Source: an uncultured Gammaproteobacteria bacterium
Lineage (GTDB): Bacteria; Patescibacteriota; Patescibacteriia; Magasanikbacterales; UBA922
Length of the DNA stretch: 64,000 nucleotides
NCBI GenBank assembly: GCA_964345045.1
Contig: CAYFPM010000001.1
Span: forward strand, 236,215-300,214
Direction: 5' to 3'
Each line of letters begins with the position of its first letter. Position 1 is the first letter of the stretch. A program made the translations under genes and the position numbers. Under the pieces are notes generated by a model. It ran no database searches, was not told the origin of the DNA, and was given only the letters and a program-made list of their open reading frames with translations. Positions 4,609 through 63,249 of this stretch are shown here, piece after piece.

Positions 4609-6150
4609 TTGCATATGAAAAAACAACTACAACGAGGTGTCATCTATTACAGAGTATCGACAGCAGAACAGGCTGAACGTGGTTTTAGTTTGGAAAATCA
4701 ACGTGAGGCGTGTTTGCATTACGCAAAAAGCAAGGACATTGATGTGATAGGCGAATATCATGATGACGGAATTTCTGCAAAGACAACAAATCGCAAAGGG
4801 CTACAGAATATGCTCCAATTTTGTTCTACCAAAAGCAATAAGATTGATTGTGTGATTGTAAACAAGGTTGACCGCCTTTCTCGAGATGTGAATGATTACA
4901 CGAGTATTTTCACACAGCTCAAAGGGCGAGGTATCACGCTCATCTCTACCACGGAAGCAATAGACAATACACCATTTGGAAAGTGTGTCGGTAATATCAT
5001 GGCGACATTTGCACAGCTAGACAATGACATGCGAAGCGAGCGAGTCACGGCAGGAATGAAAAAATGTATTGAGTCTGGTCGCTGGCCGTTCAAGGCTCGC
5101 ATTGGGTATCTCAATTACACAGACGCAGACGGCAACAAAAGCATAATTGTTGATCACAAAAAAGCTCCATTGGTACGCTTCATTTTTGAAGAATATGCAA
5201 AAGGAGTATACACCGAGGAAGAAGTACGGCAACAAGTAAACGCCAAGGGATTGCGTTCATCGAATGGAAAAGAAGTATCTCCGCAGTTTATCCATAAAAT
5301 ACTCTCTGATAAATTCTATATCAGTATCATGACAATGAACGGCGTGGAATATCCAGCATCGCATGAGCCGATTATCCGCAATGAAACGTATTATCAGTGC
5401 CAAAAGTTCATGCGAAAGTACGACAAAAAGACAAACATGTCGCTCAAAAAGAAAAACGAGCTATTTCCGCTTAGAAATTTTGTATTGTGTGGAGAGTGTA
5501 GTCGTCCATTAACCGCTTCTTTGTCTACCAGTCATACAGGCAAGAAATTTCCATATTATCGGTGCTATAACAAAGAATGCACTGCTCCAAAGTCTCTCTC
5601 TAAGGACAGGCTAGAGAGTGAGTTTTTCGATTTTCTCAAAGAACTTGCACCAGACAAACGGTATCTCAAAGTTATACGACACATGGCTCTTGAACTATGG
5701 GAAAAGAAGTATAAAGAGATGAATGTAAGCAATGAACAAATACAGAGAGAAATTGACATACTCAAAGAGAAAAAAAGAAAGACCTTTGATCTGCTCGGCA
5801 AAGGTATTATTGATGATGAAGATTTCAAAGAAGAACTTGACCGCATTAAAGCCTCGATTCAAGATAAAGAAGAATTGCTACACCAAACACCCAAAGAAAA
5901 TTTTGACCTAGAGAAAGCAATGGATATGTGTTTTGATTTCTTTTTGGAAGTGCCTGAACATTGGCAAAAGGCGACCTACACAAAGAAAATACAACTTCAG
6001 AGTTCGATTTTTTCAAAAAAACCCTCGTACCATTATCCAAAATTTGGAACCCCTAATTTTTCGCTAATCTTTCAACAAAAAAGAGACTCTGCACATGCAA
6101 AATCCCTTTTGGTAGCCCGTAGGGGAATCGAACCCCTGTTCCCAGGATGA
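4609..6150 (+). CDS. Large serine recombinase (resolvase/invertase N-domain, recombinase domain and zinc ribbon). Candidate integrase of the element.
   Basis: N-terminus VIYYRVSTAEQAERGFSLENQRE carries the catalytic Ser motif. C-terminal half has Cys pairs LCGECSRPL...YYRCYN. The last 41 nt overlap the 3' end of tRNA-Glu on the opposite strand. Confidence 0.85.
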   Translation: MHMKKQLQRGVIYYRVSTAEQAERGFSLENQREACLHYAKSKDIDVIGEYHDDGISAKTTNRKGLQNMLQFCSTKSNKIDCVIVNKVDRLSRDVNDYTSIFTQLKGRGITLISTTEAIDNTPFGKCVGNIMATFAQLDNDMRSERVTAGMKKCIESGRWPFKARIGYLNYTDADGNKSIIVDHKKAPLVRFIFEEYAKGVYTEEEVRQQVNAKGLRSSNGKEVSPQFIHKILSDKFYISIMTMNGVEYPASHEPIIRNETYYQCQKFMRKYDKKTNMSLKKKNELFPLRNFVLCGECSRPLTASLSTSHTGKKFPYYRCYNKECTAPKSLSKDRLESEFFDFLKELAPDKRYLKVIRHMALELWEKKYKEMNVSNEQIQREIDILKEKKRKTFDLLGKGIIDDEDFKEELDRIKASIQDKEELLHQTPKENFDLEKAMDMCFDFFLEVPEHWQKATYTKKIQLQSSIFSKKPSYHYPKFGTPNFSLIFQQKRDSAHAKSLLVARRGIEPLFPG

Positions 6151-6184
6151 AAACCTGGTGTCCTAACCACTAGACGAACGGGCC
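6110..6184 (-). tRNA. tRNA-Glu (anticodon TTC), CCA encoded
   Basis: Reverse complement GGCCCGTTCGTCTAGTGGTTAGGACACCAGGTTTTCATCCTGGGAACAGGGGTTCGATTCCCCTACGGGCTACCA. The acceptor stem pairs, the anticodon loop is TTTTCAT and the T-loop is GGTTCGATTCC. Confidence 0.85.
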
Positions 6185-6185
6185 A

Positions 6186-6428
6186 TTAAATTATTCTCTT
6201 TAACAATTCTTCTTTTGTAGAACTGTGTTTTTTGAGTTTATTTTCTCTTTTTCTTGCTAAGCTCAATGTATTGTAAGCTTCGTAGTATACCAACTTCCAA
6301 GGTTTTTTTGTTTTTGTGTATTTTGATTTTCCCAAGTTGTGATCTTTAAATCTTTTTTTAAGATCACTTGTTGACCCAATATAATAAGTAAGATCTTTCT
6401 TACTTTGAATTACATATACGTAGTGCAT
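6186..6428 (-). CDS. GIY-YIG nuclease superfamily protein (YhbQ/UPF0213-like, about 80 aa)
   Basis: MHYVYVIQS...YYIGSTSDLKKRFKDHN...WKLVYYEAY..ARKRENKLKK. RBS AGGAGG lies 5 nt upstream of this Met. The listed ORF starts at 6470, but the extra N-terminal codons cover two tetraloop hairpins and a tRNA fragment. Confidence 0.7.
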   Translation of the reverse strand: MHYVYVIQSKKDLTYYIGSTSDLKKRFKDHNLGKSKYTKTKKPWKLVYYEAYNTLSLARKRENKLKKHSSTKEELLKRII

Positions 6429-6484
6429 ATACCCCTCCTGTAAAACATGGTGTCTGACCCTTCGGGTCATCAGCCGAAGGCTGG

Positions 6485-8628: not shown

Positions 8629-8692
8629 TACCCCCTCAGTCCTTGCTCTACTTCGTGAGCTCGGACAGCTCCCCCTACTAGGGGGAGCAAAA
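8629..8692. repeat. GC-rich hairpin repeat, family F2 (CTCCCCCT-N4-AGGGGGAG core)
   Basis: cagctccccctactagggggagc with upstream ccttaccccctcagtccttgctctacttcgtgagctcgg. Related to the in-frame insert in uppP at 49655..49745 and to hairpins at 58377..58397. Confidence 0.5.
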
Positions 8693-15778: not shown

Positions 15779-15839
15779 TAAGTTTGTTTTCTTGTTTTAA
15801 TGATTTAATGTTCTAGTGTTTTAATGTTTTCATGAATTT

Positions 15840-16847
15840 ATGTTTGTAAAAAAAGTAGCCATTGATTTGGGAACAACAAACGTTTTGGTTCACGTGCCAA
15901 AGCGGGGAATTGTGGTAAATGAACCATCGGTAGTAGCCATTTCTAGAGAAGACAAAAAAGTTTTGGCAGTAGGAGCCGAGGCCAAAGATATGATAGGCCG
16001 TACGCCAGACACTATTATAGCCGAGCGGCCACTAAAAGATGGAGTAATTGCCAACTACCATACTACCGAAGCCATGCTTCGTTATTTTATCAATCGCGCT
16101 CTTGGTGGAGTAAGACTTTTTCGCCCCGAAGTAATGGTGGCTGTACCGGCTGGAATTACCTCTACAGAGCGTAGAGCTGTGATAGATGCTTCTATGGCTG
16201 CAGGAGCCAGAGCAGCTTATATTATAAAAGAGCCAATTGTAGCCGCTATTGGAGCCGACATTCCTATTGGTTCGGCTTCTGGACACATGGTAATAGATAT
16301 TGGAGGTGGTACAGCCGAGATTGCTGTTATTTCTTTGGGTGGGATTGTATCGGTTGGTTCGGTTAGAATTGGTGGCACCAGATTCGATCAATCAATTAGT
16401 GAATTTATTCGTCGCAAATATGGTTTGGCTGTGGGCGAGCGTACTGCCGAACAAATAAAAATCCAAGTTGGTTCGGCCATGTTTATGGATAAGCCCCTGA
16501 CAATGGAAGTAAAAGGGAGAGATGTGATTTCTGGCTTGCCTAGAAATTTGACGATTTCTTCGGACGATACTACCGAAGCTTTGCAACACGATATGGAAGG
16601 ATTGATAGAGGCTGTAAAAGAAGTACTTCACAAAACTCCACCAGAACTTTCGGCAGATGTAATGGACAAAGGTATTATTATGACCGGGGGGTCTTCTCAA
16701 CTTCGCAATTTGGACGAATTGATCTCGCAAGCTACTGGTGTTCCGTGTTACCTGGGCGAAGAGCCCCTTCTTTGTGTAGCCAAAGGAACTGGTATTGCTC
16801 TTGAAAACTTGGATAGTTACAAGAGGAGTATAATGTCAACAAAGTAA
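15840..16847 (+). CDS. mreB: Rod shape-determining protein MreB
   Basis: VAIDLGTTNVLVHV...VVNEPSVVA...DIGGGTAEIAVISLGGIV...IIMTGGSSQL are the actin-fold motifs. Confidence 0.95.
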   Translation: MFVKKVAIDLGTTNVLVHVPKRGIVVNEPSVVAISREDKKVLAVGAEAKDMIGRTPDTIIAERPLKDGVIANYHTTEAMLRYFINRALGGVRLFRPEVMVAVPAGITSTERRAVIDASMAAGARAAYIIKEPIVAAIGADIPIGSASGHMVIDIGGGTAEIAVISLGGIVSVGSVRIGGTRFDQSISEFIRRKYGLAVGERTAEQIKIQVGSAMFMDKPLTMEVKGRDVISGLPRNLTISSDDTTEALQHDMEGLIEAVKEVLHKTPPELSADVMDKGIIMTGGSSQLRNLDELISQATGVPCYLGEEPLLCVAKGTGIALENLDSYKRSIMSTK

Positions 16848-16852
16848 TTAAT

Positions 16853-16934
16853 GTACGAATTACGAATTTTACGAATGTACGAATTTTTAAAATTTAGTTA
16901 ATTCGCATATTCGCGATATTTGTAATTCGTACAT
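16853..16934. repeat. Palindromic array of TACGAAT/ATTCG units, family F3, copy A
   Basis: gtacgaattacgaattttacgaatgtacgaattttt aaaatttagtt aattcgcatattcgcgatatttgtaattcgtacat. A closely related copy lies at 63175..63249. Confidence 0.7.
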
Positions 16935-16939
16935 ATCTT

Positions 16940-17554
16940 ATGATTAAAGCAATCTTTTTTGATTTTGATGGAGTACTAACTTTGCATGGGTATGGTGGTT
17001 TTACGATTGTAAAAAATTTGGTGGCTCAAACTGGAGTAACAGAAGAAAAGATCAAAATTTGCTGGGAGCATTTTAAAAAAGATTTGAAAATAGGTAATGT
17101 AGAGTACAAAGATATGTGGCAAGAATTTTGTACTTGCCTTGGCAAAAAGATCGATATTAGCGTACTCGAATTTGTAAATAAAAACGTGCCACTAAATATT
17201 AAAATGATAGAGTTGGTTCGTAAGTTGCACGAGGCTGGTTACAAAACCGGAATTATTTCTTCCAACATAAAAGAAAGAATGGACGCGATTAGAGAAGAAT
17301 TTGGTCTCGATAATATTTTTGACACTTATTCTATTTCTAGTGATTTGCACAGCGACAAAAAAGATACCATGATTTTTGAAAAAGCTTTGCAAGATTTGTC
17401 TGTAGAAGTAGAAGAATCTGTGTTTATAGATAATCATGCTGTGAATCTTGTAGTTCCAGAAAAAATGGGTTTCAAAACCTACTTTTTTGATCATGAAAAA
17501 AATGATGTGGAGGCTTTTGTAAAACAATTAGAAATATGGGGAGTAAAAGTATAA
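16940..17554 (+). CDS. HAD-superfamily hydrolase
   Basis: The N-terminal IKAIFFDFDGVLT is HAD motif I. Confidence 0.8.
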   Translation: MIKAIFFDFDGVLTLHGYGGFTIVKNLVAQTGVTEEKIKICWEHFKKDLKIGNVEYKDMWQEFCTCLGKKIDISVLEFVNKNVPLNIKMIELVRKLHEAGYKTGIISSNIKERMDAIREEFGLDNIFDTYSISSDLHSDKKDTMIFEKALQDLSVEVEESVFIDNHAVNLVVPEKMGFKTYFFDHEKNDVEAFVKQLEIWGVKV

Positions 17555-18828
17555 CAATTGGTATAGACGTTAGCCGTGCCAACGAGGATGAAAAAACCGG
17601 AGTAGGTTGGTATGCTTGGCATCTTATTGAAAATTTAAAGAAACAAGAAACAAGAAACAAGGGGCCAAAGGGTGAAGATGTTTTTTTTATTGTTTATTCT
17701 CGGGAATCTTTGAAAGGGGAGTTAGCCAAACTTCCAGAAAATTGGAGTAACAAAGTTTTGCACTGGCCACCAAAAAGATTTTGGACACAAATCAGACTTA
17801 GTCTTGAGATGTTATTTAGTCCGCCAGATGTTCTTTTTGTGCCAGCTCATGTTTTTCCAATTATTCATCCCAAAAAAACTATTATGACAGTCCACGATGT
17901 GGCTGCATTAAAATTTTCAAAAAGTTATAATTGGTTTGAACGTTGGTATACAATTTGGTCTGCCAAGACAGCGTTAAAAAAACTTTGGAAGGTGATTGTG
18001 CCGAGTGAATTTACAAAAGGAGAAGTCCTTAAAACATTAAAACTTGAAAACATTAAAACAAATAAAATAAAAGTAGTACAACATGGGTATGATAAGAGGT
18101 ACAGAAAGATTGAGACTGATAATGAGATTGAGATTAATAAAGTTTTGAACAAATATAATATAAAAAAACCGTTCTTACTTTCTGTCGGTCGGTGGGAAGA
18201 AAAGAAAAATACGGCTAGGCTGATTGAATCTTTTGACACCCTATGTCATCTTGAGCGAAACGAACGACCGCAGGGAGAGAGTGAAGTCGAAAGATTTGTC
18301 ACTGGATCAAATTCAAAATCAGAACAGATTTCTCCACTTCATCCCGATTACGCTTCGCTACATCGGGATTACGGTCGAAATGACAATAATAGCAACTTAC
18401 AACTTGTGTTGGTGGGTAAACCTGGTCATGGTTACGAAAAGGTAGAGGAAGCCTTGGAAAAAAGTCCTAACAAAAAAGATATAATAATGCCTGGTTATGT
18501 AGATGTAGAAGATTTGGTTTATTTAATGAATGCGGCCGAGGCATTTGTATTCCCCAGTTTGTACGAGGGATTTGGCTTGCCAGTTTTGGAAGCTCTGGCA
18601 ACAGGTACTCCTGTGGTGGCTAGCAAGGGTACTAGTTTGGAAGAAGTAGGTGGAGAAGCTTGTGTTTATGTAGATCCGATATCGGTAGAGAGTATTGCAA
18701 AGGGGATTAATATGGCTTTGGGAGATAGCCAAAAGAGAAAGGCGAAAAGCGAAAAAGGACTGGAGAGAGTCAAGGATTTTTCTTGGGAAAAATGTGCAGA
18801 GGAGACACTCAAAGTTATCCTATCTTGA
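17536..18828 (+). CDS. Family-4 glycosyltransferase (GT4) carrying an in-frame repeat-element insertion
   Basis: The C-terminal EAFVFPSLYEGFGLPVLEALATGTPVV is the GT4 signature. An extra roughly 45-aa segment, ERNERPQGESEVERFVTGSNSKSEQISPLHPDYASLHRDYGRNDNNSN, sits between the two Rossmann halves. Confidence 0.8.
   Translation: MGSKSITIGIDVSRANEDEKTGVGWYAWHLIENLKKQETRNKGPKGEDVFFIVYSRESLKGELAKLPENWSNKVLHWPPKRFWTQIRLSLEMLFSPPDVLFVPAHVFPIIHPKKTIMTVHDVAALKFSKSYNWFERWYTIWSAKTALKKLWKVIVPSEFTKGEVLKTLKLENIKTNKIKVVQHGYDKRYRKIETDNEIEINKVLNKYNIKKPFLLSVGRWEEKKNTARLIESFDTLCHLERNERPQGESEVERFVTGSNSKSEQISPLHPDYASLHRDYGRNDNNSNLQLVLVGKPGHGYEKVEEALEKSPNKKDIIMPGYVDVEDLVYLMNAAEAFVFPSLYEGFGLPVLEALATGTPVVASKGTSLEEVGGEACVYVDPISVESIAKGINMALGDSQKRKAKSEKGLERVKDFSWEKCAEETLKVILS
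18245..18385. repeat. Degenerate copy of hairpin repeat family F1 inserted in-frame in the GT4 gene
   Basis: tgtcatcttgagcgaaacgaacga...agtgaagtcgaaagat aligns with the F1 consensus agtcatcctgagcgtaagcgaagga...agtggaagtccgaagagat. Confidence 0.5.
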
Positions 18829-20549: not shown

Positions 20550-21013
20550 TAGGCAGGAGGCAGTAGAGTTAGGGCTGAGGCAATAGGCAACAGGGAGTAA
20601 TTTATTTTTAATTTAGGAGGGTATGTCTAAAATAGAATCTTATAAAGATTTAATTGTTTGGCAAAAGGCCATCAGCCTAGTAGAGGAAATTTATTTACAA
20701 ACAAGTTTTTTGCCGAAAGAAGAATTATATGGGCTTTCGAGTCAAATGAGAAGATGTGCCGTGTCTATCCCGTCAAATATTGCAGAAGGATATAGACGTA
20801 GGTCAACAGGGGACTATGCCAGGTTTTTATCGATTGCCGATGGTTCAGCCGCAGAATTAGAAACCCAATTAATAATTGCAAATAAAATATATAAAAATAT
20901 TAATTTAGAAAAGAGTTTTTCAATTTTAGAAGAAATCCAAAAAATACTATTTACTATCATTAAAAAACTAAGAGCGTAGGAATACTGTTGCCTTTTGCCT
21001 CCTGCCTAACCCC
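20550..21013. repeat. Inverted repeats flanking the four-helix-bundle gene (IVS-like cassette outside rRNA)
   Basis: Left: gtaggcaggaggca...aggcaacag. Right: ctgttgcctttt gcctcctgcctaac. They are complementary and would form a long stem enclosing the ORF. The motif GGCAGGAGGCA recurs in the 61352..61399 hairpin. Confidence 0.55.
20623..20979 (+). CDS. Four-helix-bundle protein (the family usually encoded in 23S rRNA intervening sequences)
   Basis: IVWQKAISLVEEIY...LSSQMRRCAVSIPSNIAEGYRR...FLSIADGSAAELETQLIIA is the TIGR02436-type pattern. Confidence 0.75.
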   Translation: MSKIESYKDLIVWQKAISLVEEIYLQTSFLPKEELYGLSSQMRRCAVSIPSNIAEGYRRRSTGDYARFLSIADGSAAELETQLIIANKIYKNINLEKSFSILEEIQKILFTIIKKLRA

Positions 21014-27465: not shown

Positions 27466-27479
27466 ATAATATAACAACA

Positions 27480-27551
27480 GTCATCCTGAGGTAAAACCGA
27501 AGGATCTCATTGGAAGTCCGAAGAGATTCTTCCCTGTCGCTTAGAATGACT
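27480..27551. repeat. Hairpin repeat family F1, copy 1
   Basis: gtcatcctgag gtaaaaccgaaggatctc attggaagtccgaag agattcttccctgtcgc ttagaatgact. Confidence 0.7.
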
Positions 27552-30383: not shown

Positions 30384-30477
30384 AGTCATCCTGAGCAAAG
30401 TGAGCTTAAAAGGCGAACGCCGTCGAAGGATCTCTTCGGACTTCCACTGAGATTCTTCGCTGACGCTCAGAATGACT
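30384..30477. repeat. Hairpin repeat family F1, copy 2 (central loop inverted relative to copy 3)
   Basis: agtcatcctgagc ... cgaaggatctc ttcggacttccactgag attcttcgc tgac gctcagaatgact. The loop is the reverse complement of the copy-3 loop. Confidence 0.7.
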
Positions 30478-32301: not shown

Positions 32302-32378
32302 ATACAAAAAAGCATTAAAACAAAAAAACATTAAAGCAATTGTTTTATTGTTTTCTTGATTTCATGTTTTTATGAAAT

Positions 32379-47330: not shown

Positions 47331-47562
47331 AGGCTTAGGGGGCTTGCAAAGCTTGCTAGGCTTACAAAGCTGCTTCTAAATCATGTTGAGAAAATGGTGT
47401 TCGTTGTTGGCCGGTTTACCTATACCAATTGGTTACTGCTCAACAACGTCCTCATGCATTCCCAAAATGCATCCTATCTTCTCAAACAACTTAGCGTTGT
47501 TTTTTTATTATTAAAGCCTTGTGAGCCTAGCAAGCCTCACAGGCCTTGTAAGCTTTTTTAGT
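47331..47562 (+). promoter_or_regulatory. metK 5' leader with mutually exclusive pairings. Candidate riboregulator, class unassigned.
   Basis: gttgag and cgttgttg can each pair with the downstream ctcaacaacg. The palindrome atgcatt..aaatgcat is present. Repeated gcttgcaaagcttgc / aagcctcacagg motifs. Confidence 0.2.
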
Positions 47563-49414: not shown

Positions 49415-50323
49415 ATGACAGCTCTAGAAGCCCTAGTTTTGGGCATAATCCAAGGTTTAACAGAGTTTTTGCCAGTCTCTTCGTCTGGCCATCTTGTATT
49501 TATGCCACATATTTTTGGCTGGGCATATCAGGGTTTGGCTTTCGATGTAGTGGTGCATATGGGCACTTTGGTGGCAGTAATTTTTTATTTTAGAAAAAAG
49601 CTGTGGCAGATAGTAAAGTCTCTTTTTTCCAAGAATATTGGTCAGACTGCCGGTACTCCCTTAGACTCGTCCTCCCTTCCGCAGACCCCCTCTTCCCGCT
49701 CGCTCCGCTCGCGGGGTCTCCCCCTAAAAGGGGGAGAGGAAACAAATGTTTCTAGACTAGGATGGTTTCTTTTGCTTAGCATTATCCCAGCTGGTTTATT
49801 TGGATTGCTACTGGGGGATTTTGTAGAGACTAGTTTGCGTTCGCCTTGGGTGGTGGGAGTTAGTCTAATTTTTTGGGCAGTGGTACTGGCTGCTGCCGAT
49901 GGTTTTGGCAAAGGCCTTGCAGACAAAAAAGCCAACAAAGACTTAGAAAAAATAACTTTTAAAAATGTGTTGTTTATTGCCTTGGCTCAGGCAATAGCTT
50001 TAATCCCAGGGACTTCTCGTTCTGGTATTACTATGACTGCCGGGCTATTTGCTAAGCTAGACAAAAAGTCTGCTGCCGAATTTAGTTTTCTTATGTCGGT
50101 GCCGGTCATAACTTTGGCCGGAGTCTACAAACTTTTTCAAGTAATAAACAATGGAACAATGGGGCAATGGGACAATACGTTTTTAGTAGGCTTCTTGGCT
50201 TCCACAATCAGTGGTTTTCTAGCTATCAAGTTTTTAATGAAGATAATCCAAAAGTGGAGTTTTATGCCGTTTGTAGTTTATAGAGTGGCCATTGGGACTC
50301 TCATCCTTTTTTATCTTACTTAA
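49415..50323 (+). CDS. uppP: Undecaprenyl-diphosphatase (BacA/UppP) with an in-frame GC-rich hairpin insertion in a loop
   Basis: GLTEFLPVSSSGHL ... PGTSRSGITM are BacA motifs. A roughly 35-aa Pro/Ser/Arg-rich insert (TAGTPLDSSSLPQTPSSRSLRSRGLPLKGGEETNV) sits between TM2 and TM3. Confidence 0.9.
   Translation: MTALEALVLGIIQGLTEFLPVSSSGHLVFMPHIFGWAYQGLAFDVVVHMGTLVAVIFYFRKKLWQIVKSLFSKNIGQTAGTPLDSSSLPQTPSSRSLRSRGLPLKGGEETNVSRLGWFLLLSIIPAGLFGLLLGDFVETSLRSPWVVGVSLIFWAVVLAAADGFGKGLADKKANKDLEKITFKNVLFIALAQAIALIPGTSRSGITMTAGLFAKLDKKSAAEFSFLMSVPVITLAGVYKLFQVINNGTMGQWDNTFLVGFLASTISGFLAIKFLMKIIQKWSFMPFVVYRVAIGTLILFYLT
49655..49745. repeat. F2-family GC-rich hairpin element inserted in-frame in uppP
   Basis: gctcgctccgctcgcgggg tctcccccTAAAAgggggaga gg. 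Compare 8629..8692. Confidence 0.55.
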
Positions 50324-53557: not shown

Positions 53558-53608
53558 TTGACAGCTTTTTTTGGGCATGATAGTATCACTCTACTAATAT
53601 GAGTGATA
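53558..53608 (+). promoter_or_regulatory. Sigma70-type promoter followed by a CIRCE-like inverted repeat (HrcA operator variant)
   Basis: -35 TTGACA at 53558-53563, a 17-nt spacer, -10 TAGTAT at 53581-53586. Then TATCACTC-N9-GAGTGATA at 53584-53608, against the CIRCE consensus TTAGCACTC-N9-GAGTGCTAA. An extra TTAGCACTT half-site lies at 53537-53545. Confidence 0.5.
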
Positions 53609-53632
53609 ACCTGCCCAACTTTCTATTTTGCT

Positions 53633-53872
53633 ATGTATTATGTCTATTTACTACAAAGTCAAGAAGACGATGCTCTATACACGGGTTATGCCAATGATCT
53701 AAAAAAAGATTGGTAGAGCACAATGGTGGCAAGAATTTTTCTACCAAATACAGGAGACCCTTTACCCTGGTTTACTACGAAGCTTATCAGAATATCAAAG
53801 ACGCTAAAGCTAGGGAAAAATTTTTAAAAACAGGTTGAGGTAGAAACTATATTAAAAAAGTTTTGAAGAATT
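53633..53872 (+). pseudogene. GIY-YIG nuclease gene (paralog of 6186..6428) disrupted by frameshifts at A-homopolymers
   Basis: MYYVYLLQSQEDDALYTGYANDLKK then stop. The +1 frame continues RLVEHNGGKNFSTKYRRPFTLVYYEAYQNIKDAKAREKFLK. The break is in a run of seven A. A second likely shift is in the a5 run near 53840. Confidence 0.5.
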
Positions 53873-55900: not shown

Positions 55901-55972
55901 AGTCATCCTGAGCGTAAGCGAAGGATCTCAGTGGAAGTCCGAAGAGATCCTTCGCTTACGCTCAGGATGACT
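55901..55972. repeat. Hairpin repeat family F1, copy 3 (perfect 29-bp stem)
   Basis: agtcatcctgagcgtaagcgaaggatctc agtggaagtccgaag agatccttcgcttacgctcaggatgact. Confidence 0.8.
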
Positions 55973-63162: not shown

Positions 63163-63174
63163 AAGATTATTTAT

Positions 63175-63249
63175 GTGCGAATTACGAATATTGCGAATTT
63201 ACGAATTTTATTTTATTCGCATATTCGTGCGATTCGCAATTCGCACATT
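63175..63249. repeat. Palindromic TACGAAT/ATTCG array, family F3, copy B
   Basis: gtgcgaattacgaatattgcgaatttacgaatttta ttttattcgcatattcgtgcgattcgcaattcgcacat. Confidence 0.7.

Follow-up and report, generated by a model that had tools for sequence, protein, structure and literature searches.

In a 64,000-nucleotide stretch of DNA from an uncultured bacterium of the Magasanikbacterales (GTDB Patescibacteriota; GenBank assembly GCA_964345045.1, contig CAYFPM010000001.1, positions 236,215 to 300,214; hereafter the window), a gene for a family 4 glycosyltransferase (GT4) carries about 140 nucleotides (nt) of extra coding DNA. We read this segment as an old, decayed and composite copy of a dispersed hairpin repeat, here called F1, which also occurs three times between genes of the window; taken as one reading, including an origin of F1 linked to a small GIY-YIG nuclease gene, we consider this probable, at roughly 80%. 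A first-pass annotation made from the window alone had proposed a degenerate F1 copy within the GT4 coding sequence, and this is borne out by the absence of the segment from orthologs, by the ranking of the site under a covariance model, and by a strict structural motif. The likeness to F1 was correctly noticed there, but only the left arm had been seen, whereas the insert is a two-armed composite with further fragments nested in both of its loops.

The GT4 protein matches Glyco_transf_4 (PF13439) at residues 47-186 and Glycos_transf_1 (PF00534) at residues 284-408, and 5877 of the candidates scored were homologs at E ≤ 1e-10. Among named relatives the closest are from Candidatus Magasanikbacteria, which belong to the Candidate Phyla Radiation (CPR, or Patescibacteria), the top ortholog being just 58% identical; orthologous loci also share the gene neighbourhood, which comprises mreB, a HAD hydrolase, GT4 and a thiamine pyrophosphate (TPP) enzyme. 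When 120 sequences were aligned, the window protein was found to possess about 43-47 residues that 119 orthologs do without. Between the helix ending in AF(D/N)x(L/I) and the strand LQLVLVG there are 51 residues in the window protein versus 5-10 in most orthologs, and the columns holding residues 239-281 (nt 18250-18378) have an occupancy below 30%, mostly below 5%. The reading frame is kept through the insert, with no stop codon inside it. All of the invariant columns of the alignment are retained (41/41, including E344, G345, F346 and G347), as is the nearly invariant E352, and the two Pfam domains, the catalytic-region residues and a modelled secondary structure of two Rossmann-type domains together identify the protein as a GT-B enzyme of family 4. 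Judged by these sequence features the gene looks functional, and the extra peptide would be both translated and harmless. An identical 430-aa protein is encoded in contigs from three sequencing runs (ERR2281800, ERR2281802 and ERR2281803, of project PRJEB17505) produced by two assemblers (MEGAHIT and Logan), which makes an assembly chimera very unlikely; predicted peptides such as FVTGSNSK and NDNNSNLQLVLVGK would span the junctions of the insert.

We built an AlphaFold2 model of the GT4 protein from 69 aligned sequences, which had a mean predicted local distance difference test score (pLDDT) of 88.8 and a predicted template modelling score (pTM) of 0.86. In the C-terminal Rossmann domain, helix 226-242 precedes the insert and strand 289-293 follows it, both scoring 95-98; the segment, for the most part coil, averages 45-50 in the 10-residue blocks over residues 251-280 and 69 in the two blocks at its edges. 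The Glycos_transf_1 match resumes at residue 284, corresponding to profile position 44, so that the first connection between helix and strand in this domain is split by the insert. The first-pass annotation had described an in-frame lengthening of the inter-domain linker by about 45 residues, of which the size and the preserved frame hold, but Pfam and the structural model agree in placing the site in a loop of the C-terminal Rossmann domain. There the insert peptide would form a disordered surface loop without a required function.

Similarity to the F1 copies of the window is low when measured by standard searches. A profile of the three intergenic copies matched the GT4 site at just E = 2 (nhmmer), and single-sequence nhmmer or blastn searches with the GT4 insert as query gave nothing significant. 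The insert also folds no better than shuffled sequence (z = -0.81) and does not form a stable whole-element palindrome, so that the label palindrome suits the F1 family and was rejected for the present GT4 copy; the intergenic copy at 55901-55972 has a fold z of -13.6. The difference is in keeping with decay and with the insertions in the loops, and folding as a whole does not define a single arm. As these E and z values left the claim open, we characterised the family more widely and built a covariance model, R1, exclusively from 55 arms of other phyla, all of which were partner arms that had not themselves been selected by the search pattern. Each F1 arm is a hairpin composed of GTC, a 5-bp helix (AT-NNN/N'N'N'-AT), a tandem G.A/A.G, a second helix of at least 2 bp and a small loop, and a full element consists of two arms in inverted orientation around a variable middle. 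In the alignment of the 55 arms, 97.9% of the cells are paired and 62 are compensatory, with both sides changed; none of 500 shuffles paired as well, and slid controls reached only 24-45%.

Scanning the window with R1, unfiltered, placed the six arms of the three intergenic copies first (E 1.7e-6 to 0.02), followed by the two arms of the GT4 element, 18327-18384(-) at E 0.56 and 18245-18296(+) at E 0.74, with the following match, located elsewhere, at E 3.4. From these E-values we estimate that such a convergent pair within 150 nt would be expected by chance about 3e-4 times anywhere in the window. A strict motif (GTCAT-NNN-GA, a loop of 4-45 nt, GA-N'N'N'-AT) had seven matches, which were five known F1 arms and the two GT4 arms, and none elsewhere in the window. 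By comparison, 1000 dinucleotide shuffles contained a mean of 0.022 matches per window, and two or more matches were found in none of them. Of the known RNA families, just tRNAs reached the Rfam gathering threshold over the window, and an F1 copy drew only sub-threshold matches to generic, miRNA-like hairpins, with none at the E-value threshold.

The boundaries of repeat and indel, which the first-pass annotation had proposed to compare, do agree, as the element ends at 18245 and 18384, within about two codons of the ends of the GT4 indel. The two arms are convergent and 32 nt apart, with their outer 17 nt 76% complementary, and the GC contents of the two arm matches are 0.48 and 0.50 compared to 0.376 in the surrounding 1 kb. 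Apart from a 33-nt loop insertion, the right arm is identical at 24 of 25 bases to GTCATTTCGACCGTAGGGAGAAATC, an arm adjoining a GIY-YIG gene of metagenome locus L190, and it also comes close to arms of L171, L176 and L197. The loop insertion is itself an AT-CCC...GGG-AT hairpin (18341-18348 / 18362-18369), and within the loop of the left arm is CGACCGCAGGGAGAGA, which by eye looks similar to the inner portion of arms of the TTC subfamily. Nesting of one arm in another is frequent among bona fide elements (L159, L160, L179, L181, L182 and L220, for example). The peptide CHLERNER encoded by the GT4 insert resembles the peptides CHSERMRRI and CHPERMRRI, which are encoded by in-ORF (open reading frame) copies in L089 and L064.

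The loop that received the GT4 insert holds other, unrelated inserts in the orthologs P0002, P0043, P0048, P0070 and others. In P0002, the closest ortholog, a different hairpin insert occupies the same loop (L006 866-940; fold z = -3.3); this insert is bordered by AGCTTACAGCT(C) direct repeats, which may represent either a duplicated target or a portion of a heptad run. In P0070 (L009 1713-1749) a solo arm of the family, GTCATTGCGA...AGCAATC, lies in this loop and encodes ...EIASSPAKASRNDS...; it is the top R1 match among four ortholog loci, yet a weak one (E 2.7). The inserts of P0002, P0043 and P0048 are not recognisable as F1 family members by R1, and no further copies were found on the short contigs of these orthologs.

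F1 is not specific to CPR. The exact arm GTCATYCTGAGCGNNNGCGAAGRATC was found in at least 120 stretches (one genome per species) from many phyla, with carriers among the Acidobacteriota, Chloroflexota, Bacteroidota, Bacillota, Cyanobacteria, Omnitrophota, Verrucomicrobiota, Planctomycetota, several proteobacterial classes and several CPR groups, and near-identical arms cross phylum boundaries. Among 136 pattern matches in other phyla, about five are in-frame in good ORFs, of which four are housekeeping genes confirmed by Pfam (Table 1), and the in-ORF arms encode recurring peptides (VILS.SEGS, CHSERMRRI and RSFA.AQDD). In-frame survival is thus a general, if infrequent, fate of F1. A coding-compatible design of the repeat was considered and rejected, since element lengths show no clear bias toward multiples of three (36, 26 and 18 elements with residues of 2, 0 and 1 modulo 3); usually one or two of the six frames are open. 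A BLAST search with a 72-nt consensus had no match in plasmid and phage collections, and a pattern scan of IMG/VR yielded 26 contigs, none of them with a GIY-YIG gene; these results do not support a mainly viral or plasmid vector.

Clustering of the ORFs that adjoin F1 elements pointed to a small GIY-YIG protein. In the loci sampled by element (815 kb), all six GIY-YIG genes are arm-flanked, and five of the six lie no more than 124 nt from a pattern match, when 12% of the sequence lies within 400 nt of one. We also examined a reciprocal sample of 80 metagenome loci picked by Slx1-like GIY-YIG protein and not by element, of which 51 show a strict-motif arm no more than 300 nt from the gene, and 35 show arms on both sides. 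Among the 63 evaluable genes, 28 lie between a + arm upstream and a - arm downstream, and arms occur at 3.8 per kb close to the gene (165 in 43 kb) versus 0.23 per kb farther off (27 in 119 kb). The arm-bracketed units span 348-594 nt (median 447 nt), and in other phyla gene-less F1 palindromes are far more numerous than these nuclease-carrying units. A 2006 survey of the GIY-YIG superfamily described the stand-alone bacterial proteins as Slx1-like and probable repair enzymes, and flanking repeats are unmentioned there (PMC1564403).

The association of arms and nuclease genes leads us to propose, tentatively and at somewhat less than even odds, that F1 palindromes are the offspring of a so far undescribed class of selfish elements of ~350-600 bp that is spread over bacterial phyla, in which a minimal Slx1-like GIY-YIG gene lies between two tandem-G.A arms, and which nest in one another's loops and have occasionally added in-frame peptide loops to essential enzymes (GT4, MurB, TrmH and ThiF), in reduced CPR genomes too. 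In our main reading, F1 would be a gene-less derivative of the arm-GIY-YIG unit that has been mobilised by it. [quoted passage not shown] Within genes, insertions would survive only where they are in-frame, free of stop codons and situated in a tolerant surface loop, and such a filter would explain why different hairpin inserts are found at the same loop of GT4 orthologs. Once within a gene the palindrome would decay, either because nothing maintains its structure or because a strong in-gene hairpin is disfavoured.

A rather unlikely alternative is that the relationship runs the other way, with F1 hairpins being host structures or ones that spread independently, similar to terminators or REPs, into which the GIY-YIG gene inserts as a homing element, and with the GT4 copy having arisen through recombination or template switching. 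The frequent interruption of arms by arms fits insertion into a hairpin loop, the intergenic copies of the window lie just past stop codons in the manner of terminators or REPs, no target-site duplications were seen, and the window has arms without having an arm-bracketed nuclease. The position of the gene between + and - arms in 28 of 63 cases nevertheless resembles cargo between inverted ends, and near-identical arms across phyla are hard to reconcile with sites owned by their hosts; neither point is decisive.

A second gene of the window, uppP (bacA), also carries an insertion, which belongs to a different hairpin family, F2. The encoded protein is a UppP/BacA, matching PF02673 over residues 6-295 (profile positions 1-256 of 257, E 7.5e-81), and its residues 79-105 (nt 49649-49729), an excess of 27 or more, are missing in most orthologs, in a loop of variable length. 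The first-pass annotation had placed an F2 hairpin in-frame in this loop at 49655-49745; the motif and the absence from orthologs agree with this, but the core of the element is confined to 49686-49736. The F2 motif, consisting of CCCCCTC, a spacer of 5-35 nt and a tight hairpin (CTCCCCCT-loop-AGGGGGAG), has just two occurrences over the window (8631-8687 and 49686-49736) and none in 100 shuffles. Although the uppP insert includes a perfect 9-bp hairpin at 49717-49737, as a whole it folds no better than shuffled sequence (z = -1.12). The two closest uppP orthologs (59% and 57% protein identity) have an F2-type hairpin at the same loop position, CTCCCCCTAAAAGGGGGAG in P0122/L130 being the same as the uppP hairpin of the window and the variant in P0127/L131 being one base shorter. 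No relative free of the repeat was found to share the extra peptide, which the first-pass annotation had named as the result that would speak against an insertion, since the closest relatives carry the F2 repeat DNA itself. The uppP insertion may be one old event kept in a small clade, or it may reflect repeated insertion into a permissive loop.

Both F1 and F2 cross phyla, and they co-occur. The F2 motif is also present in L130 and L094, with close variants in L131, L095 and L105, and related elements were found in contigs of Rhodothermales, Intestinimonas and Nitrospinota. In the Nitrospinota contig (L105 6249-6400) the F2-like hairpins CCCTCCCC...GGGGAGGG adjoin an F1 arm, and the Intestinimonas element (L095 248-300; ACCCCCTCAGTCC...GGACAGCTCCCCC...GGGGGAGC) is near to the rplJ-rplL copy of the window.

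It is improbable that the GT4 and uppP hairpins are maintained because they act where they are, for example as structures in RNA or DNA by which translation is slowed or the transcript is marked, rather than being neutral relics of selfish DNA. Arm covariation implies selection on structure somewhere, and the identity of the uppP hairpin in an ortholog of only 59% protein identity, with its one-base-shorter variant at the same place in a second ortholog, could be understood in these terms. That identity would be explained equally well if members of a conserved family, which is also present between genes here and in other phyla, had inserted independently, and in GT4 the insert has a fold z of only -0.81, is missing from 119 orthologs, and gives way to unrelated inserts in the same loop elsewhere.

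We regard as very unlikely an ordinary lineage-specific loop expansion, by slippage or duplication, with a chance resemblance to F1. The variable length of the loop among orthologs, the nhmmer value of E = 2 and the poor hairpin that the segment now forms speak for such an expansion; however, both ends match the independent R1 model in the correct convergent orientation, the strict motif is found 0.022 times per shuffled window and never twice or more in 1000 shuffles, the right arm agrees with a foreign arm at 24 of 25 bases, and the GC content of the arms is raised. Removal of the insert before the mature protein, in the manner of an intron or intein, or alternatively an assembly chimera, is likewise very unlikely, as nothing direct favours either beyond the intervening sequences for which the rRNA genes of CPR genomes are known, while the window has no intron family above the Rfam threshold, 47 residues are too few for an intein, no such Pfam domain is present, and the same sequence was recovered from three runs and two assemblers.

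Several observations weigh against our interpretation of the GT4 insert as a decayed F1 copy of nuclease-linked origin. Each of the two R1 matches has E of about 0.6 when taken alone, so that significance comes from their pairing, orientation and position and from the strict motif, and the loop range of that motif was set after the matches had been seen, its fixed positions being taken from the foreign alignment. Neither a target-site duplication nor an empty-site allele was seen, and by eye no direct repeat flanks any of the four F1 copies of the window, the one in GT4 being old and degenerate; mobility of F1 is therefore putative. Because the closest GT4 ortholog is so distant, the insertion cannot be finely dated or polarised. 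The insert measures 140-142 nt, which is no multiple of three and may reflect its original length or later compensating indels. The intergenic copies begin with AGTCAT and the GT4 copy with TGTCAT, so the latter is not simply derived from the former, and translation of the insert is predicted from the sequence. Finally, the GIY-YIG genes of the window share only ~31-35% identity with the arm-bracketed subfamily, and no arms adjoin them.

Table 1 Features of the window and in-frame F1 arms in other phyla. Locations are window positions, or sampled loci where an L number is given.
Feature	Location	Strand	Details
GT4 glycosyltransferase gene, host of the F1 insertion	17536..18828	+	Intact ORF, 430 aa; Pfam
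Composite degenerate F1-type element in GT4 (GTCAT...ATGAC)	18245..18384		Residues ~237-284, CHLERNER...GRND
Left arm of GT4 element, GTC-ATCTT-GA...GA-AAGAT	18245..18295	+	34-nt apical loop; R1 13.9 bits, strict motif
Right arm of GT4 element, GTCATTTCGACCGTA[33 nt]GGAGAAATC	18328..18384	-	R1 14.5 bits, strict motif
Intergenic F1 copy	27479..27551		Between ORF end 27322 and ORF start 27562
Intergenic F1 copy	30384..30477		Left arm with 28-30-nt loop expansion; between ORF end 30372 and start 30510
Intergenic F1 copy	55901..55972		29-nt perfectly complementary arms, 14-nt centre; between ORF end 55878 and start 56020
uppP (BacA) gene, host of the F2 insertion	49415..50323	+	Intact, 302 aa
uppP extra segment	49649..49738	+	F2 core 49686-49736: CCCCCTC...CTCCCCCT-AAA-AGGGGGAG
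Intergenic F2 copy between rplJ and rplL	8631..8687	+	F2 motif
Intact GIY-YIG nuclease gene	6186..6470	-	94 aa; PF01541, E 4e-19; no arm matches nearby
Frameshifted GIY-YIG gene remnant	53603..53838	+	tblastn in two frames, split ORFs; no arms adjoining
In-frame F1 arm, MurB	L021		Micavibrio; arm inside gene (Pfam)
In-frame F1 arm, SpoU/TrmH methyltransferase	L026		Candidatus Gilichinskyi gelida; arm inside gene (Pfam)
In-frame F1 arm, HI0933-like flavoprotein	L055		Bacteroidales; arm inside gene (Pfam)
In-frame F1 arm, ThiF/MoeB	L089		Flavobacteriaceae; arm downstream of ThiF match
In-frame F1 arm, lipoprotein	L020		Fibrobacter; Ser-rich linker, upstream of its sole Pfam match

Other features of the window touch on these genes and repeats. 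The remnant GIY-YIG gene has its frameshift at an A-run (ctaaaaaaagattgg), and, judged by eye, a sigma-70-like promoter appears to lie upstream of it at 53560-53595. The intact GIY-YIG gene adjoins a tRNA gene (6113-6184, -) into which the gene of a large serine recombinase extends (4609-6150, +; domains Resolvase, Recombinase and Zn_ribbon_recom), and this region may be the edge of an element integrated at the tRNA. Downstream of the TPP-enzyme gene lies a four-helix-bundle gene of the 23S_rRNA_IVP family (PF05635; ~20623-20979), and the same Pfam family is present in the ortholog locus L008; it was tried as a partner of the repeats and rejected, as no arms flank it. A third, AT-rich palindromic family with CGAAT/ATTCG units (ATGTACGAATTACGAATTT...AATTCGTACAT) occurs at 16851-16934 and 63173-63248, one copy of it separating mreB from the HAD gene a short way upstream of GT4. 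Runs of an 8-nt periodic unit (TTGTTTTMWTG) are found at 15784-15842 and 32340-32374, upstream of mreB and near tRNA genes, and a 45-nt segment within the GT4 coding sequence (18022-18066), which is not an insertion relative to orthologs, is 78% complementary to runs of this type. Inverted repeats of 39 nt with GCTTG/CAAGC-like units (47333-47371 / 47515-47553) are 77% complementary and 143 nt apart. GC skew is negative to ~4 kb, positive from ~4 to 60 kb and negative thereafter, with a cumulative minimum at ~3-4 kb and a maximum at ~60 kb; these turns could be strand-switch points or rearrangement boundaries.

Of the known systems with which F1 can be compared, the Rickettsia palindromic elements (RPEs) cited by the first-pass annotation are an apt analogy. 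RPEs are ~100-150 bp long, each family encodes a conserved peptide, and almost half of the copies first described are located in ORFs (work of Ogata et al. 2000 and 2002, as reviewed in PMC10969869). Like F1, they are short palindromic repeats that occur between genes and in-frame in unrelated housekeeping genes, where their peptide is apparently compatible with the fold, although the likeness, compared by description, is one of behaviour only, namely that of an in-frame palindromic repeat. F1 arms differ in being spread over many phyla, in having only about 5 of 136 matches in good ORFs with no clear multiple-of-three length bias, and in bracketing a GIY-YIG gene, whereas the review mentions no partner enzyme for RPEs (PMC10969869). 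Bacterial MITEs (Correia/NEMIS, ERIC, BOX, QMITE and Anabaena elements; PMC10969869) are likewise small, non-coding, multi-copy and mostly intergenic with inverted ends, and they share with F1 occasional in-frame fusions to host ORFs and a longer, gene-carrying relative with the same ends. The F1 copies fit MITE-like traits in their terminal inverted repeats, small size, non-coding nature and several copies; unlike MITEs, which derive from insertion sequences with transposases and usually have target-site duplications, F1 showed no duplication by eye, and the longer relatives that share its ends encode a GIY-YIG nuclease (PF01541) and not a transposase. The F1 partner has the same catalytic domain as GIY-YIG homing endonucleases and Slx1, and homing genes spread as selfish DNA (PMC1564403). 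Branched or structured DNA is what Slx1 enzymes cut, and the hairpin or cruciform arms of F1 would match this; classical GIY-YIG homing enzymes have extra DNA-binding domains and reside in introns or between phage genes.

REP/RAYT units (REPtrons) are, by analogy, the closest architectural parallel to F1/GIY-YIG units, as both comprise dispersed, mostly intergenic hairpins, inverted copies of which flank a small nuclease-type gene proposed to spread them. RAYTs are relatives of HUH/Y1 transposases, and REPs have a conserved GTAG head and are species-specific. F1 differs from them in that its enzyme is a minimal Slx1-like GIY-YIG protein (PF01541), its head is GTCAT, and its arms are near-identical across phyla.

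We found no literature on an F1-type element or on such insertions in CPR, but not all journals were covered and an earlier description is possible. The remark of the first-pass annotation that in-frame elements of this kind had not been described for CPR is in keeping with this, but the phenomenon is not particular to CPR, as F1 copies are found in-frame in housekeeping genes of many phyla. The GT4 case is a further example of in-frame palindromic insertion, and what appears to be new is the F1 family and its GIY-YIG partner.

These findings have practical consequences for genome annotation, as F1 repeats seed spurious small ORFs and odd peptide tails (VILS.SEGS, CHPERMRRI and RSFA.AQDD) and inflate loop lengths in protein families built from metagenomes. 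They also suggest a possible role for the widespread and unexplained stand-alone GIY-YIG genes of bacteria, which can be tested in cultured hosts such as Mucilaginibacter. That selfish palindromes can survive in-frame has been a textbook oddity of Rickettsia and is now seen in CPR by way of a repeat family shared among many phyla, and the same outcome reached through a shared family points to a general and testable route by which disordered loops may be added to conserved enzymes.

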